Below, in pieces: positions 6,960 through 64,000 of a stretch of 64,000 nt of DNA. Source of the stretch: Octopus vulgaris. Taxonomy: Eukaryota. The stretch spans positions 75,578,001 to 75,642,000 of the forward strand of contig OX597825.1 of NCBI GenBank assembly GCA_951406725.2. Direction: 5' to 3'. The position numbers and the translations under genes are program-made. The notes beneath the pieces are model-generated. The model made no database searches. It was not told the DNA's origin and saw nothing but the letters and a program-made list of their open reading frames with translations. Positions within the stretch are counted from its first letter, which is position 1. The number at the start of each line of letters is the position of its first letter.

Positions 6960-7660
6960 ATGCTGATCTATGAGAAAACATGAAAATATATGAGAAAAAC
7001 TGAGAAGAAAAACATGAAGAAGGTTCGTGTAAAAGTGGAATGAGAAAAAAGAAAGAAAAGTAAGGAAACCAAGTCTTTGTTCCCTTTGTTTGTAGAAATC
7101 ATGATTAATCAATCTGGCGTAGAATAATATAACAGAGAGGAGGCCAAAGTCTGTGAGATAGCTACTCAATATGAAGAGGGTGGTGTTTTCCAGTTTGATA
7201 GTAGAAACTTGTCCATGTGCATGCATTTGCTAAAAATTTTGGTTCTGGAATTCAGTGGTGTTTGAATCTAAAAAGAATGTGTGACCTTTTAACTTGACAT
7301 AACTTGCATCTCTTTGATCCATGCATATATGGCATAGATTTCTCCATGATTCTCCCTGTGATTGTATGTGGCATGCATTTGGTTTTCAAATCTCATATAT
7401 GGTTATCCATGCAGGCACATGGACAAGTTTCTTTTGTTGAAAAGGAGGAAACCACCCAATCTGGATTGAGTAGCTATCTCAAAGGCTCTGGCCTCCTCTC
7501 CAAAATATTATTCAACTCAACTTAGATTAATTATGATTTCTACAGCCAAAGTTGATGAAGCTCTTAGTTTTCCTACTTTTCTGTCTTCTCATTCTACTTT
7601 TTGCTTCAACCTTCTTGTTTCCCATTTTTCTTATAGACTAGTGTCCTGGTTTTCAAAAAT
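6960..7660. repeat. Old imperfect inverted repeat (arms ~6960-7230 and ~7405-7660), foldback/MITE-like
   Basis: gagatagctactcaat..gaaacttgtccatgtgcatgcat mirrors atgcaggcacatggacaagtttc..attgagtagctatctc; 7670-7740 also mirrors 5865-5935. Confidence 0.7.
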
Positions 7661-19407: not shown

Positions 19408-20812
19408 ATAAGAAAGTTGGTTTGTGAAAGCACGTGGGTGAATATATAGAAAATAGTAAAGAGTGAAAAAACTACAGAAGGCATAAATGTTAAAAAATAT
19501 TTGCGTCAATATGTCTGAAGAATATTAGAAAATTTTTTTTTTTTTTTTTTTCTCTTATAATGACATAATTTAAAAGAAGGACCAGTTTTGCATGTAGCTT
19601 TTCAAATTTCTTGCGACGTTATGTTTATGTTGAATAGAGTTTTCGTTATGTTTATGTTCAGGAGAGTTCTAAATAAGGGAAGGTAGTGAGTGATTTCTTC
19701 CGGTGTAAGGGAGATAATTGCTTAAAAATTTTTTCCTTTCCCTTGTGAATTTCTCTGTATCAGTATGTTCGGATTGTTGAGTCTGGGCTTGTACTTTTCA
19801 ATGAAGAATGTTTCTTTGTTTAGTCTAATTTGTGTTGATGATCCGAAAGCACATTGGTAAAATGGAAAGATTAAAAATTGTGGTAGTAGTTGTTTTGCAC
19901 ATTTCTCAATGTGCTCACTAAAAGGTATCATTCTATATTCTGGGAATGCAATCTGTTGTCGATGCAGTGTGCATCTACGTCTGAGTGATAGTCCCGTGGA
20001 ACCCACGTAGTCTTGGTGGCAGCCCGAGCATTTTATGACATAAATTATGTTTTCAGAGGCACAAGTAAAGTTAGATTTGATCTTGAATTTCTGTCCCTCT
20101 TTAAAGAGGAATTCTGGTCCTTCTAGCAGGTTAGGACATGTTGCACAGTTCGATCTACCACATTTTTTTACTTTTGCATCCGTAATTTCAGAAGACAATA
20201 TTGCCTTTGTGAGAATCTTTTTGAGTGATTTAGGCTGTTTGTAGCTTTTAATGATTTGGTGTATGTTTAGAATTTCCTTTAATTTGGGGTCTTTATGAAG
20301 TATTGGTAAATTCTGGGTGATGATGGTGAAGGCTTCTTTGTTTCTGGGGTTGTATGTAGATATGTAAGGTAGTATTTTCGGGGAAGGTGTGTTGTTGTGT
20401 TGAACTTTTCTTAAAGTTTCTATGTTGATTGCTGTTGCACGTCTGATCCCATCCTCTATGAGTTGAGCTGGGTAATGTCTGTCAATTAAGGTGTTTTTGA
20501 GTTCTTGCAGTCTAAAGTTCCTGGTATTCTGTTCTGACACTATTGTGCATATCCTTCTTGCAAGGTTGAAGAGGATGTTTGTTTTAGTGTGTCTTGGGTG
20601 GCATGAATTAAAAAGAAGGTATTGTTTGGCGTCTGTGGCTTTGTAAAAGATGTCTGTTTCTATTTTAAGGCTAATTTTTTTAATTAGTATATCCAAGAAT
20701 GGGAGCTCCTTTTGGTTGTATTCCATTGTGAACTGTATATTGGGTTAATGCTGTTCAATAGGTTTTTAAATTTTAGGAGTTTATCTGTGTTTTCATTCCA
20801 GAGAATAAAACA
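19408..20812 (-). mobile_element. Penelope-like element (Neptune-type), 5'-truncated just after the RT DD motif
   Basis: ORF 19722-20726: LPFLDI, SCHP, CGRSNCATC linker, FTCASENIIYVIKCSGC..YVGST GIY-YIG; TA tracts on both sides. Confidence 0.9.
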
Positions 20813-36690
<15,878 letters not shown>

Positions 36691-41969: not shown

Positions 41970-43967
41970 ATTTTGCGATTACATCTCCAACTTCCCTTAT
42001 GGTGAACTCCCACAACCTAAACTCAAACCCAACACCAGTAAAAGAGAATGGGAAATCATCCATACGCTACGAGACAATCATGACGTCACAATAAAGGAAG
42101 CTGATAAGGGTAGTAAGGTCGTTGTTATGAATACTGAGCAATATAAAAACTCTGTATCTCTCCTTTTAGAGGATACCACATACTACGAAAGAGTAGTCGA
42201 CTACCAGCAATCCAAAACAATGACCAATCTGAAGGCACTCATTTACCAACACCGGAATGACTTGACAGCAAAGGAATGCGACTACATTACTAAATTTAAT
42301 TGCAAAACCAGCACACTCTATGGGCTTCCAAAATACACAAGAGTCAAATTATCACAGAAGCTTGCAAAAAGTCCACTTCAACCTGCATCACTATACCACA
42401 TCCCACTGATCTCAAACTGAGACCAATAGTGGCAGGCCCAAGTTGTGAAACACACAGACTTAGCAACTTTATAGATATCATCTTAAAACCAATACTGAAA
42501 CACATTCCAAGTATTGTAAGAGATGACCTGGACCTATTAAACCATCTCCCCAAACATGCCGATAAAGACACCTTAATCGTTTCTTTTGATGTTATTAATC
42601 TTTACACCACAATCCCACATGAATTTGGACTGGAAGCCATTAAATTCTGGCTGGATAAATATCCCAATGAGATCCCGGAAAGAATTAAAAAAGAATTCAT
42701 AATTGAGGGCCTCAAATTTATTCTGCAAAACAACTTCATGTATTTCCACAACAACACTTACAGACAGGTCTCAGGGACTGCAATGGGTACGAAAGTTGCA
42801 CCTACCTATGCAAACCTGGTGATGGCCTACCTGGAATCACATATCTATGAAAAATCCAAATATAAGTACGGCCAGTCTTTCCACAAATACCTGTTGGAGA
42901 ACTGGAAACGCTACTTAGATGATTGCCTCATCCTATGGTCCCACACACTCGACCAACTTATAGACTTCAAAAACCTTATCAACAGTGTAAATAACAACAT
43001 TCAATTCACAATGGAATATAGTCAGGACCAACTCCCTTTTCTTGACATCCTAATCATTAAAAAAGGCGTCAACATTGAAACTGACATCCATTACAAACCC
43101 ACTGACTCTAAACAATACCTTCTATTCACCTCCAATCACCCAAAACACACAAAGACAAATATCCCCTTCAACCTAGCGAGAAGAATCTGCACTATTGTCT
43201 CAAATGACACAACACGAAATAGAAGACTCCGGGAACTAAGGGCAATTCTTCTCGAAAGACATTACCCGGCATCACTAGTAGACAACGGAATAGAACGGGC
43301 CAAATCAATCAACATTCAAGACCTTCGAAAACCCAAACACATCCACAGTACAGTCAATAGCCTCCCTTATCTCTCAACACACAACCCAAGGAATGCAGAA
43401 GCTTACACTATTATATACAACAACATTCCACAACTAAATCAAGACCCACGCCTGAAAAAAATACAGGCAGCTCATAAAATAATAAAAAGTAAGAGACAAC
43501 CTAAATCCCTAAAAAACCTCCTCACCAACGCAAAATTACACAACACAAACCCACCGCCCACCATCAAAAAATGTGGTCGCCCCAACTGTAAGACCTGCAT
43601 CCACCTCATTGAGGGATCGTCGTACAAGTTCCACTCGGGACACACATTCATCATAAAAAATAACTTCACGTGCGCATCAAAAAATTTACTCTACGTCATA
43701 AGGTGTGAAGGATGCCACGAAGACTACATAGGGCAAACGAGCCTTACCCTCAGAGACAGAATGACAGTTCACCGACAACAACTGAGGGACCCCTCCACAA
43801 GACAGATACCACTAAGTGGACACTTAGACCTTTGTGCACACAATAAGTCCCCCAAATTCTTAGTCTTCCCACTATACCAATGCTCGGACAACACCACAGA
43901 CCAAACACGAATAAATAAGGAAAGTAATCTTATTCAAAAATACAGACCACAACTAAACATACTCTAA
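41970..43967 (+). CDS. Penelope RT-GIY-YIG polyprotein, 5'-truncated, one frameshift at ~42331
   Basis: IKEADKG, LYGLPK/IHK, LRPIVAGP, SFDVINLYT, GTAMGT, RYLDD, CGRPNCKTC, LLYVIRCEGC..YIGQT. Confidence 0.92.
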
Positions 43968-46103: not shown

Positions 46104-56061
<9,958 letters not shown>

Positions 56062-56346
56062 TATCAACAATTGAGGGTAAAATTAATTAGTTATTAATCA
56101 ATTTCACCAAGTATTCAGTATGTAAAAGGACCATCCAAGGCGAATTCAAAATATTACATTATATAATTAGGGCTTAGTAAAATAAATTACTTTGCCACAT
56201 ACTGAATTTGCTAGAAATAGCAGCCAAAAAAGTTTTTTTGCCATTTCCACTACTTAAAGAAAATTTCTCTCAGATAATGTTTACTCAAAATAACTCACGA
56301 AGGTATGGAGGTAAAAACAGAAAAATATCACAAGTACAAAGATTAT

Positions 56347-56407
56347 TTGAGAACGTTAACGTTTCTAGATTAGCCAAATAAACTCAGCATTTCTTTCGTC
56401 AGCTCAA
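56347..56407 (-). ncRNA. Type I hammerhead ribozyme, canonical core
   Basis: TTGAG-CTGACGA-A[AGA..GCTGAG TTTA TTTGGC..TCT]A-GAAA-CGTTAACG-TT-CTCAA. Confidence 0.85.
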
Positions 56408-56910
56408 CATTTCTTATTTTGGATTTGGAAGCACTAAAAAGAAAGAACATACCCTTTGGCGACTTATCACCTCAGATGACCCGTTCAGACTGCCAGTACC
56501 AACAAATTCAAAATGTGCAAGCGAAGATTCCCTGCTCTCCTCTTCCACCCACGTGGGTTATCTAGCAAACATTATATTTTAACGGTGAGAACCGAGGCAA
56601 TATGACAGAGAGAAATGAATTATAATATCAACAATTGAGGGTAAAATTAATTAGTTATTAATCAATTTCACCAAGTATTCAGTATGTAAAAGGACCATCC
56701 AAGGCGAATTCAAAATATTACATTATATAATTAGGGCTCAGTAAAATAAATTACTTTGCCACATACTGAATTTGCTAGAAATAGCAGCCAAAAAAGTTTT
56801 TTTGCCATTTCCACTACTTAAAGAAAATTTCTCTCAGATAATGTTTACTCAAAATAACTCACGAAGGTATGGAGGTAAAAACAGAAAAATATCACAAGTA
56901 CAAAGATTAT

Positions 56911-56971
56911 TTGAGAACGTTAACGTTTCTAGATTAGCCAAATAAACTCAGCATTTCTTTCGTCAGCTCAA
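56911..56971 (-). ncRNA. Type I hammerhead ribozyme, second copy
   Basis: Identical to 56347-56407. Confidence 0.85.
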
Positions 56972-57016
56972 CATTTCTTATTTTGGATTTGGAAGCACTA
57001 AAAAGAAAGAACATAC

Positions 57017-57343
57017 ACACACATACATATACATATACATATACATATATATACACATACCCATGTACGTACACACAGATACACATATACATACATATAT
57101 GTATACATATATGCATTTGTATATATATGTGCGAGTGGGTATACATATATGTATGTATATGTATGTATATGTGTATCTTTGTGTACGTACATGGGTATGT
57201 GTATATATATGTATATATATGTATATGTATATGTATATGTATGTGTGTGTATGTATATATATATGTATGTATATGTGGGTATGTATGTACATGTATAGAT
57301 ATATGTGAATATGCGGGTGTATATATGTGTATATATATATATA
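57017..57343. repeat. Degenerate TA/CA/TG microsatellite
   Basis: Direct reading. Confidence 0.9.
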
Positions 57344-58820
57344 AGGAGTAGTTTATAGAGCCAAGGTGCAAGTGGAAGGCTCATCGGAATACAAGACATA
57401 CACAGGGGCTTCAGAAAATTCATTTAAAACAAGATTTTATTCTCATAAGAATTCTTTTAAATACCCAGAGAATAGAAAGAAAACCAGCCTAGCAAAATAT
57501 GTCTGGGAACTAAAAGAAAAGGAAGCCCCACCTTTCAACGTGACATGGAGCATTCTGGACAGGGCGGCACCATACAGGCATGGAGCTTACAAATATAATT
57601 TCAAGTGCAGGCTTTGCTTATTAGAAAAAATGCATATATTATTCAAAGACAATAATTCTTTGAATCAAAGAAGTGAATTAATGAACTTATGTAGGCACAA
57701 GGCTAAATTTAAAATGTCGAATATAAATATACCATATGGATAGAGTATATATTTTGTATTTTGATTTTTTGATTTTGATTTTGACTCTTGAGCGCTACAA
57801 CGGACCTATAGCAAAGTCTTATTGTTTCTACATATATATTAGGAAAAACCTACAAACTTTGTTTTCATGTTATTGTATTGCATAAGATTACCTTGATTAT
57901 TTATATTACCTTGATTATTTATAAATGACCCAAAATAGGATGTTATATTTTATTTTATAGGTCTTTCGTATATATTTTTATTAATGCACCCATTTTTTAA
58001 AAGCAATGTTTTTTTATAAAAAAAGCAATGTTGTCAAATTTAGAATGTTTATATAAGTTTGTGTATAGCAAAGCATATGTATTTGTAAGCATGCGTATCT
58101 GTGTATGTGTGAGTGAAAGTATGCTTGTGCTTAAGCACACATATACACGACGGTATGTATATGTATCAATTCAAACTTGTGTATGTATACAGGCCTCTAT
58201 AGATGCCAAATAACATCGCTACAATTTTTTTCCCCACCCCTCCTCCGTTCCTTTTTCTCTCTTTCCCTTTCTTTCGTTCCCCCTCCTTGCTCAGTATATG
58301 AGAATTGCTACATAGATGAATTTTAGCTTGCGTGCGAGACGGTTTGCGTGAATATATGTACACATGCTTTTATGTGTATAATTTAGATTCATATTCATAC
58401 GTCTGTATATGTATGTATGGCGTTTACGCGCATCCTTTTGTGTATGTTGATATATATATGTGGATTTTAATATAAATATGTATTGCAGTATTTATAACAG
58501 GTTTAATTTCTATGCATTAATTTGTACTGTCTTCATTAACGGCAACAGGTTTTTTCCTCGGTATTTTCCTCGGATTTTATAATTTTTATAAGTTTTTATA
58601 TATATATACATATATTTTTGACCTTTTTGTTTATCGCTCGAAGATTGACCGTTTTTTCTAAAGGGCCAATCAAACAAGTCCATTTCTTTTTAAAGGTGTA
58701 GCGTTTGTAAGAGTATAGATTGAATTAATATATATGTTCCATTCTAGCAAAAACTGTCTGATGAACGGCAACGAGAAACTCAGAGTAACAGATTTTGTTG
58801 ATTTTTCTGCTGCATAAAGT
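57344..58820 (+). mobile_element. Penelope-like 3' fragment (GIY-YIG domain plus 1.1-kb 3' UTR), same type as 34848-35568
   Basis: GVVYRAKV..YTGASENSFKTRFYSHKNSF..TSLAKYVWEL..CRLCLLEK..LNQRSELMNLCRH. Confidence 0.87.
58745..58800 (+). ncRNA. Type I minimal hammerhead ribozyme
   Basis: TAGCAAAAACTGT-CTGATGA-A CG GCAA CG A-GAAA-CTCAGAG-TA-ACAGATTTTGTTG; 13-bp stem I with one mismatch. Confidence 0.85.
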
Positions 58821-58837
58821 ATATATATATATATATG

Positions 58838-59716
<879 letters not shown>

Positions 59717-61960: not shown

Positions 61961-64000
61961 CATATACATACATATATACATACATAGATACATATACATA
62001 TATATAGTTATTCATTTCTATTTGTTTATTTATCTGTGTATTTATTATGTTTTTGGTATCCTCTATCGTCATATGTTGTGGTGTGTGCTATTGCTCCATT
62101 CTAGTTTTCTATTCAGGCTAGGTTTATTTTCTATTATATGTGTAGCCTCTGTAATTTGTCTAATTGTTGCATCTGCTCTATGTGTGGACAATTTCTTAAT
62201 CTCTATGTTATTGATTGATCCCCCGTGTTCCTGTTCGGCGTGTTGGTACAGAATCGATGAGCTTTTACCTTCCTTGAGTTGTCTCCAATGTACATTCACC
62301 CGCTTTCCTATGCTTCTTGCCGTTTCCCCTACGTATGTTATTGTCTTGTTACTGCATCATCCCTCTATACATCTTATACTATAGACTACATTTCTGGCTT
62401 TACAGTTTGTTTGTGGGCTAAATCTACATACAGTGCAATAGTTATCCGTACAGGGGGTTCTACTAAAAGGATAGGTTCTACCAATTATAGATTTGATAGG
62501 GTTGCCTGGCTTTTCAACAACCTTAATTCTTAGTTTAAGTTTATCTAGGGTCCTTCTAAAGCGGTACGCCAGTTCACCTCCAGGGGTGGTGTCAACGAAC
62601 ATGACACTCTGGTATTTATGGCTATCATACCAAGTGTTGGCCTTCCCTATTTTCTTTTTTGTCCTTTCTATAGTGTTCCATGACTTGTTCCTATAGAGTG
62701 GGCAAATCCCATTCCTATCATTACATAATATATTATCAAATTTCTTCATGGCTCCTTTGTATACTCTGATCCTTTCTTTATGGCTGTAACCTGAGAACTG
62801 CATGCGGTGAATGAAATACTGTATGTGTCTCTTTAATTCTGTAGGCTCGCACATGCGTGACACATTTCTCATTATTCTGACGAGGTCTGCCATCAAAATA
62901 TTGAATTTGGCATTGCCCGCAATGGCTGAGTTCCGGTGGATCAGGTATTTTGAGGCCATAGGTTTGGCATAGTAAGGATTTGGGTTTTATTTTTCACAAT
63001 TTCTAGCCAGAGTTCAGTGTCTAGTACTGGTAGTCTATGGTTGGGGTGTTTAGTGGGGTAGTCTATTGTGACCTTAATACTCTGGTGGATGGAGTTAGCT
63101 ATTTGCTGGATGCTCTCCATAGTGTTAGTTTCTATTACTATATCAACATTACTCTCTTGTGGGGGTGCCTTTACCACTATGTTGATATCATCAACATAGC
63201 GAGAGTACATGTTTACGAGTATGGATTTTTGCAGTAGGCGTTCTTTAAGCCTTCTGTTCCACCATACCATGAAAAGGTTGGCCACATCACCAGCGATACT
63301 AACACCGATGGCTGCCCCCTCGTCCTGGGCATATACTTTATTATTAAATTTAAACGTGTGGCCTTTTAGGGTAACTCTTATACTAGCTCCTAGTGCATGT
63401 GCGATCATTTTCTTTACCTGATGGACATTTGCGGGGCTCCATATGGCTCTGGTCCATCCGCGCCATCTTTCTATATGAGTCTTCCTAGCCATAGAAGTAA
63501 TTGTAGGCAGTCTACCTCTTAAACATCTACTGGGGCAGAAACTACTATGATTATGTTTATCTAAGTATTCATTATTACATGTCAGTCTAAGTAGGAGGCC
63601 CAGTTCTTCTGTGTTGACATTACAGAACTCCACCTGGCTCTCGTTGATCATCTCCATGCACTTCTCCACTGCAAAATCTACGTCAATCGATGGGTATAGG
63701 GATACCACATCCATGCTACCTACTATACATCCTGTCAAGTCACAAGTTTTGTTACAGTCACTGATCCTGCTTAGGAGATCTTCTGTGCTGTCACACACAT
63801 CAGGTGACATCCTGATTATAGGGCGTATGATCATTGAGAGGAAGTAGGAGATTCTGTAATTGCTAGCGATATTCGCTCCACAGACTGGTCTTGTTGGTGG
63901 TCCTGCTATAGGGTCAGTAAAAACTTTATGGTCCTTGCGAAGTCCATACAGTGCCGGGATATCATTGTTCCAGGCTTGGAAATTATTCGCAGTACGTTTC
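61330..64000 (-). mobile_element. Penelope-like element, Naiad-like (RT plus C-terminal GIY-YIG), runs off window; left boundary approximate
   Basis: [74 protein letters not shown]; frameshift ~62965; ORF ends 62069. Confidence 0.88.
61444..61488 (-). ncRNA. Degenerate hammerhead in the Naiad-like 3' UTR
   Basis: GGACCA-CTGATGC-G GTCACA GGAG TGTGAC-GAAA-GAAC-TC-TGGCC; perfect stem II, weak stems I and III, A9 changed. Confidence 0.55.

Follow-up and report, generated by a model that had tools for sequence, protein, structure and literature searches.

The locus and its hammerheads

The element studied here occupies positions 56061-57016 of the window, by which we mean the whole 64-kb stretch of Octopus vulgaris DNA that was analysed. 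As stated in a first-pass annotation of this DNA, it consists of two near-identical direct repeats of 392 bp that flank a single-copy segment of 172 bp (56453-56624). The repeats (56061-56452 and 56625-57016) have a period of 564 and one mismatch (56175/56739); six-frame translation of 56061-57016 likewise yielded no meaningful ORF. In terms of units the length of the element is 956/564 = 1.70. The features of the locus are as follows.

56061..57016, minus strand: single-arm retrozyme insertion of 1.70 units, beginning at unit position 464 and reaching its long end at 291
56902..56980, minus strand: 5' type I hammerhead with CUGACGA, A·A at 10.1/11.1, long stem II, palindromic stem III and GUU; predicted cut after 56916
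56338..56416, minus strand: 3' type I hammerhead, identical to the 5' one; predicted cut after 56352
56352..56915, minus strand: 564-nt monomer bounded by the two predicted cleavage sites
56453..56624, minus strand: single-copy 172-bp part, mostly within the least conserved half of the unit
56621..56816, minus strand: conserved structured domain, internal copy, with three hairpin or stem modules; it contains both start sites
56715..56724, minus strand: short start site, internal copy, unit about 192-201, after CCCUAAUU
56061..56150, minus strand: tail from the short site to the long one (unit 291, after CCCUCAAUUG), the start site at which this insertion ends
about 55028..56060, no strand: (TA)n target tract adjoining the 3' end of the insertion (56061)
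57017..57342, no strand: CA/TA/GT microsatellite with an inverted repeat, joined to the truncated 5' end
57343..58826, plus strand: Hydra A, neighbour of the retrozyme insertion; a copy truncated at its 5' end, from a very young Hydra-type Penelope family whose unit of 3,361 bp has a 711-aa ORF

A second copy of the short site, at 56151-56160, was not used in this insertion, whose 5' junction, read by eye, looks like microhomology. Both repeats carry two adjacent variants not found in 26 other copies. A near-identical copy of the locus with the same left flank is present on a small contig (L019, G000:C74:20530-21252), and represents either a second haplotype or an assembly duplicate.

Each repeat holds a type I hammerhead on the minus strand: CTGACGA starts at 56966 and 56402, and downstream of each copy there follows GAAA-CGTTAACG-TT and, directly after the predicted cut, CTCAA. 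With 56916 and 56352 as the last bases before the cuts, double cleavage is predicted to release 56915-56352, the 564-nt product that had been proposed. The description of these hammerheads as canonical is too strong, because stem II opens with an A·A pair (10.1/11.1) and is lengthened by an internal loop plus a second helix. None of the 34 Rfam matches at E<=1 in 54000-59000 was to a hammerhead; only microsatellite-driven miRNA matches were obtained. A custom motif scan of the 64-kb window recovered four hammerhead-like motifs, including the two of the retrozyme. Judging from this rarity and from its conservation across subfamilies, the motif is not a chance occurrence.

The core is retained across subfamilies, with C, U or A at N7 and U or A, never G, at H17; at 10.1/11.1 the window copy has A·A and the sister subfamilies have A-U, U·U or G·U. 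Among 15 distinct hammerheads 94.7% of 285 cells are paired, versus 31-48% when the partners are slid, and 12 of the 15 unpaired cells fall at 10.1/11.1. The covariation score was reached by 0 of 500 shuffles; the number of stem pairs changed on both sides (2) was reached by 448 of 500, and is thus not in excess. The preserved core and the compensatory stem changes among subfamilies indicate that the ribozyme is under selection. According to PMC3088659 the 10.1-11.1 pair is the most conserved of the hammerhead after 15.1-16.1, with U·U as a natural variant, and an active axolotl ribozyme with U·U at this position is reported in PMC7229834; A·A would not pass the filter described in PMC3088659, and may slow cleavage. 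There is no significant pile-up of 5' ends at the cut (7 observed against 3.7 expected, P 0.08), so that they carry no direct mark of cleavage in vivo; conservation of the motif supports self-cleavage of the RNA.

For the 564-nt monomer a circular fold of -145.8 kcal/mol is predicted (z -5.3 vs 25 shuffles), and in the 4 of 8 subfamilies that were folded (25 shuffles each) the predicted z ranges from -5.3 to -7.6. In the fold predicted for the window copy the core pairs with stem III (56384-56402 and 56352-56362, minus strand). Such an alternative would be inactive and could protect the circle; the sequence required for it is missing in subfamilies with CUGAUGA or CUGAAGA cores.

A dispersed family with two fixed 3' ends

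The element is an animal non-LTR retrozyme, a known class, and belongs to an abundant, non-coding family of mobile repeats with a hammerhead motif. In the 2.8 Gb of genome searched (227 contigs) the unit had 2,292 candidates at first look, 40 of which were scored. Exact matches numbered 4,132 for an 18-mer of the tail, 1,414 for the hammerhead 18-mer pattern, 886 for another pattern of the family, and 456 for the long-end/TA junctions of one subfamily group, against controls of 0 in every case; among the first 100 tail matches listed, 8 were passengers in the 3' UTR of a second Hydra family, Hydra B. Copies are dispersed as monomers, dimers and multimers, in permuted arrays with variable 5' ends that are not LTR-bounded; the permuted multimers for which a genome-wide check had been suggested are therefore present, and include an array with 13 units.

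From 120 full units, 8 clusters (subfamilies) of 546-565 nt were derived, which are 77-100% identical to the window copy. Between subfamilies identity is 0.885 in unit 160-295 vs 0.723 in 296-564. The conserved domain is predicted to fold into three modules (z -3.8, 0/200 shuffles), and its enclosing stem contains one compensatory change. Old dispersed repeats that lie outside these families also contain the TTTGGCTGCTATTTC motif of its hairpins (window position 788, L156:7480, L157, L170:4880, L403, L125). The family was also found in sequencing runs of four organisms (A-D), and thus extends to related species; it is present as contigs in four runs guessed to be RNA, and contigs cannot show transcription, ends or circles. 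Neither this retrozyme family nor the pairing counts given below were found described in the literature, where supplements or Repbase/Dfam may list the family; the words 'hammerhead' and 'Hydra' are absent from the main text of an octopus repeat annotation (PMC13282606).

Arms were mapped in three sets of loci (L001-L030, L081-L180, L211-L300), which after removal of duplicates gave 190 insertions. We left out 20 that were cut by the locus edge, were Hydra B passengers, or had <80% identity; the remaining 170 comprise 118 inverted insertions, 51 single-arm insertions and 1 other. Their 3' ends fall at two fixed sites, unit 185-210 (short) and 288-299 (long), which are about 94 nt apart, at +201 and +295 after the cut. 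A TA run follows 251 of 272 standard 3' ends, in agreement with the insertion in TA that had been noted at the locus. The inverted insertions combine a long with a short end in 101 of 118 cases, two long ends in 3 and two short ends in 2, while 12 have an odd (non-standard) end: pairs of like with like are thus 5/118, and 17/118 lie outside the long/short rule. Of the 106 insertions in which both ends are standard, 101 have one site at one DNA end and the other site at the other. Most loci were selected via the long-end motif, by which short/short cases are hidden; among loci chosen without it, 25 of 26 insertions with two standard ends were long+short (P 4e-7). Single-arm copies (n = 51) have the long end in 41 cases, the short end in 7 and another in 3, most of their loci having also been picked via the long end. 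Only a slight rise was seen in long arms that halt at the short site (24 stops at 60-120 nt).

An optional tail, head-to-head inversions, partial tandems and 5' truncation are Penelope-type hallmarks, here on a retrozyme. The tail, which is Penelope-specific, and the head-to-head inversions support the earlier proposal of mobilisation by a Penelope-type enzyme. The most informative feature, missing from that proposal, is the presence of two fixed start sites. Since a Penelope tail has been tied to two RT start sites (PMC11167929), the long/short pattern is a known Penelope hallmark that is here found on a retrozyme, longer and counted. The near-strict pairing counts and the anatomy of the insertions are new; the retrozyme class and its link to Penelope elements were already published.

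Penelope-like elements and the search for a partner

The family had been predicted to be independent of any Penelope ORF, and in none of the 170 insertions analysed does the element form the end of such an ORF as its terminal repeat. This was checked by tblastn with the Hydra A protein in L001-L030 and L081-L180, where no ORF continuous with a retrozyme arm was found; L211-L300 were judged via their ends and flanks.

One candidate for a partner was the neighbouring Hydra A copy, which lies head to head with the retrozyme across the microsatellite. Its family is young, as more than 100 of 150 scored matches are 100% identical over a 126-aa query. The 711-aa ORF has RWK, DKT, a CxCx5C linker, CxxC and CxH, and no CCHH; together with the TA target and the hammerhead, this motif reading places the neighbour at 57343-58826 in the Hydra clade. 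A Pfam search of the Hydra ORFs returned 0 families. The short hammerhead of Hydra A, at 58758, likewise has A·A at 10.1/11.1. A single chimeric insertion of retrozyme and Hydra A fragment is unsupported, as 326 bp of microsatellite lie between the two and the case is not repeated in 51 single-arm flanks read by eye, and Hydra A was set aside as a partner since it has no nucleotide similarity to the retrozyme. Hydra B was also dismissed, as it has its own hammerhead and ends and contains only a passenger piece of the retrozyme: a small inverted insertion that is fixed in its mostly microsatellite 3' UTR of ~3 kb (L191:3795-4007; L147, L164, L142, L136, L138). The retrozyme was therefore active before Hydra B spread. 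Some Hydra B derivatives end at the long site of the retrozyme; in L136 and L138, which have the short site in inverted orientation, this is true of both arms.

BLAST and profile searches returned no partner match of their own in Hydra D, in 19 more distant Hydra loci or in a young Neptune family; three weak profile matches turned out to be older relatives with no ORF attached. A relaxed search for the end motif retrieved only non-coding families (30 loci, about 23 distinct), and a contig branch at 56607, followed as a route to a partner, led to sister subfamilies. Among the families sampled, in a genome that holds further ones, there is no autonomous partner that shares the 3' ends. Pairing of a long with a short end is nonetheless common to the young autonomous families: 16/16 inverted copies examined in Hydra A (ends at +38 and +108), 11/11 in Hydra B, and 6/6 with both ends seen in Neptune. 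The tails of Hydra A, Hydra B, Hydra D and Neptune measure about 70, 71, roughly 85 and 48 nt, and none equals 94 nt. On circumstantial grounds, namely TA targeting, hammerheads and longer tails, the Hydra clade is our first guess as mobiliser.

Other elements of the window were recorded in passing. On the plus strand, a Hydra B 3' end at about 58830-59131 has a hammerhead at 59074 and terminates at its own short site in TA; a third Hydra family, with a damaged hammerhead, is represented at 34865-35500; and at about 42300-43960 and downstream (also L384-L403) there is the young Neptune-type family, with a unit of about 5.8 kb, an ORF of 776-847 aa and a 48-nt tail, in which the motif scan recognized no hammerhead. 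The minus strand carries an older Neptune-type fragment (19932-20738), a decayed Hydra piece (7267-7449), a frameshifted Penelope-like element with a C-terminal GIY-YIG (62000-64000), and a LINE, apparently of CR1/L2 type (50480-55027), of which ~1 kb of the 3' part is duplicated (50480-51490 and 51975-52985) with TA tracts between. Many further non-coding hammerhead families in TA were seen elsewhere in the genome (L071:400-1015, L208:4900-6480, L394:1766-2251, L404-L433; units of 485 and 535 bp); their AU-rich stem II regions are at most about 60 nt, and several have an end architecture with two sites. At least 4 distant non-coding families have the same start-site architecture, with a spacing of 94-104 nt; since the regular expression for the start sites matched 5 of 20 loci tried and missed the retrozyme family's own copies, this wider occurrence is only a lead.

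Template, mechanism and relation to known systems

The reading that we favour, with a probability of about 0.62, is that of a non-coding hammerhead retrozyme, with long and short 3' ends paired in its inverted insertions, that is copied from circular RNA by a borrowed Penelope-like RT, which would prime once at each of two sites. The course that we infer starts with transcription of a copy with two hammerheads, such as the one in the window; double cleavage and ligation of this RNA would give a circle of 564 nt. The conserved hairpin domain would then be bound by an RT/GIY-YIG protein of Penelope type, probably dimeric and in all likelihood from the Hydra clade, which would cut both strands of a TA tract. 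Priming on this one circle would use the +201 site for one DNA end and the +295 site for the other, and the two cDNAs would be joined head to head. Failure or loss of one arm would leave a single-arm copy, as in the window. The Poseidon protein is reported to cleave and extend both strands, to use two internal start sites that define the tail, and to be a predicted dimer (PMC11167929); points in the same source that weigh against our reading are the lack of strand preference between the two start sites in vitro, and insertion that is independent of ribozyme cleavage, with no reads ending at the cut. Among Xenopus retrozyme dimers, likewise, only 1/9 is given as cleaving in vitro (bioRxiv 10.64898/2026.07.22.740005).

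That both arms derive from one template is suggested by their sequences: they belong to the same subfamily in 52 of 53 pairs (arms >=150 nt), though several subfamilies are young, and they differ from each other at 131 of 17,281 sites (0.76%), while units inside an arm differ at 89 of 15,395 (0.58%), and separate insertions of one subfamily by a median of 2.5% (nearest 1.1%). It has been proposed (PMC8557442) that priming occurs only once, the second arm arising by fold-back or template switch on the first cDNA, and that the endonuclease resolves the product at the other TA-like site, with a one-sided tail as the outcome. The similarity of both sites to the TA target agrees with this scheme, as does the nesting of one arm in the other in 56 of 95 two-arm insertions; in 17 of these 95 the junction is near-palindromic, in that the arms stop <=10 nt apart on the template (4.1 on permutation), a coincidence that could come from a shared RNA end or from fold-back. 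In the other 39 of 95, however, neither arm fits within the other, as many as independent lengths predict (39.9 by permutation); fold-back cannot give such pairs, which point to two separate RT runs. Each site is also found alone as the 3' end of single-arm copies, and biochemistry shows two RT starts (PMC11167929), so that we regard single priming as improbable.

The nature of the template is less direct. A cleaved linear monomer is not the main one, because arms extend across the cut site (154/272) and exceed one unit (85/272), and 5' ends are not enriched at the cut. It might be argued that the same non-autonomous element, with the same two start sites, is copied from an uncleaved linear read-through of a tandem copy, the ribozyme being slow or serving at a different step. 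This is a possibility that we consider unlikely, although it would account for the missing pile-up of 5' ends and for the A·A mismatch in stem II, unprocessed RNA is described as the main Poseidon substrate (PMC11167929), and arrays of source length exist in the genome. The distribution of variants speaks against it: among 5,758 sites covered at least 3 times in 38 insertions, 63 variants occur in all copies and 64 only once; a further 2 are specific to a unit and present so in both arms, and 9 show some other pattern. An aged multimer would pass unit-specific variants to both arms, and about 17 of these would be expected instead of 2, an estimate (0.29% x 5,758) that assumes sources as old as the sampled copies. 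Repeated 5' truncation would moreover shrink the arrays at each generation, yet arms longer than one unit are frequent, and subfamilies that differ by 23% have kept the ribozyme. The sharing of variants among units is what a circular template predicts, and agrees with repeated reading of a single unit; young source arrays, or gene conversion between repeats, could mimic the pattern. The circular RNA template proposed in the first-pass annotation is thus favoured indirectly, by a genomic signature of arms across the cut site and variants common to units. A circular template was proposed earlier (PMC4209133, PMC7229834). There is, finally, only a very slight chance that what we describe is an autonomous Penelope element's tandem pseudo-LTR, or a satellite that multiplied at the DNA level. 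Pseudo-LTRs have hammerheads, tails and inversions, a low-copy partner could escape sampling, and unequal crossover may lengthen arrays; this reading is largely refuted by head-to-tail units with no intervening ORF, by the lack of an arm-continuous ORF in L001-L030 and L081-L180, the sole ORF link being the inverted passenger in the Hydra B 3' UTR, and by dispersed copies with precise 3' ends and variable 5' truncation.

A more general and more tentative idea, to which we give somewhat less than even odds, is that viroid-like circular RNAs of this genome form a superfamily with a common folded 'double-primer' domain, from which a Penelope-type dimer would prime both ends of a cut TA tract on one circle. 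The domain would consist of the CUGCUAUUUC motif and a stem around the short CCU-AUU site, followed by a hairpin and, 94-104 nt further on, the long ACCCU-AUU site. If this is true, a single mechanism explains the Penelope tail, the inversions and the tandem copies, and the domain is a portable RNA signal for putting circular RNA cargo into microsatellites. The family provides counts (near-strict long/short pairing, arms from the same template, a variant pattern compatible with a circle) that bear on how retrozymes move, on the copying of circular RNA by Penelope-like elements, and on the origin of tails and inversions. The anatomy of the insertions renders the open mechanism of mobilisation testable: the RNA signal is narrowed to a domain of about 200 nt, and the same genome has Hydra and Neptune ORFs, about 710-850 aa long, that are young and intact, so that a trans-mobilisation assay is easy to design.

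These results can be compared with four known systems. Animal non-LTR retrozymes (Cervera and de la Peña 2020, PMC7229834; Li, Clavereau and Pollet 2026, bioRxiv 10.64898/2026.07.22.740005) are described as non-coding tandem units, each with a type I hammerhead, of low GC and with strong predicted self-pairing, which occur in monomer-to-multimer copies together with Penelope-like elements; all this holds for the present family. Mobilisation by those elements has already been proposed in the two studies, the second of which argues that animal retrozymes are non-autonomous Penelope derivatives. The unit of 564 nt exceeds the circles of 170-400 nt given in PMC7229834 and is within the 51-972 bp of bioRxiv 10.64898/2026.07.22.740005. 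Stem II differs in that it begins here with A·A and is extended, and the fixed start sites, tail, inverted arms and TA targeting seen here have no description in the available text of either study.

With Hydra-clade Penelope-like elements (Craig et al. 2021, PMC8557442) the retrozyme shares insertion in (TA)n, a hammerhead near the 3' end, inverted and partial-tandem insertions and a one-sided tail, and with the young Hydra families of the same genome the long/short pairing. In contrast to them it lacks an ORF, is unrelated in nucleotide sequence to the Hydra families examined, and has a tail of about 94 nt; its hammerhead is of full size and has a long stem II, where those of Hydra A and B are short. 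Non-autonomous Chlamys elements such as MRC1 (PMC8557442) are also head-to-tail, multicopy and targeted to microsatellites, but they do not have canonical hammerheads and generally share the 3' end with a known autonomous family, while for the retrozyme none was found. A parallel for the ends is Poseidon of Anolis (PAc; Frangieh et al. 2024, PMC11167929), for which two internal RT start sites downstream of the hammerhead are reported to define the tail, on an AT-rich target and with both DNA strands extended, features that the insertion sequences suggest for the retrozyme as well. PAc is described as autonomous, with a tail of 30-40 nt inside the ORF, whereas the retrozyme template is non-coding; and while PAc in vitro is reported to have no preference of strand for site, the DNA ends of the retrozyme differ in site in 101/106 insertions.
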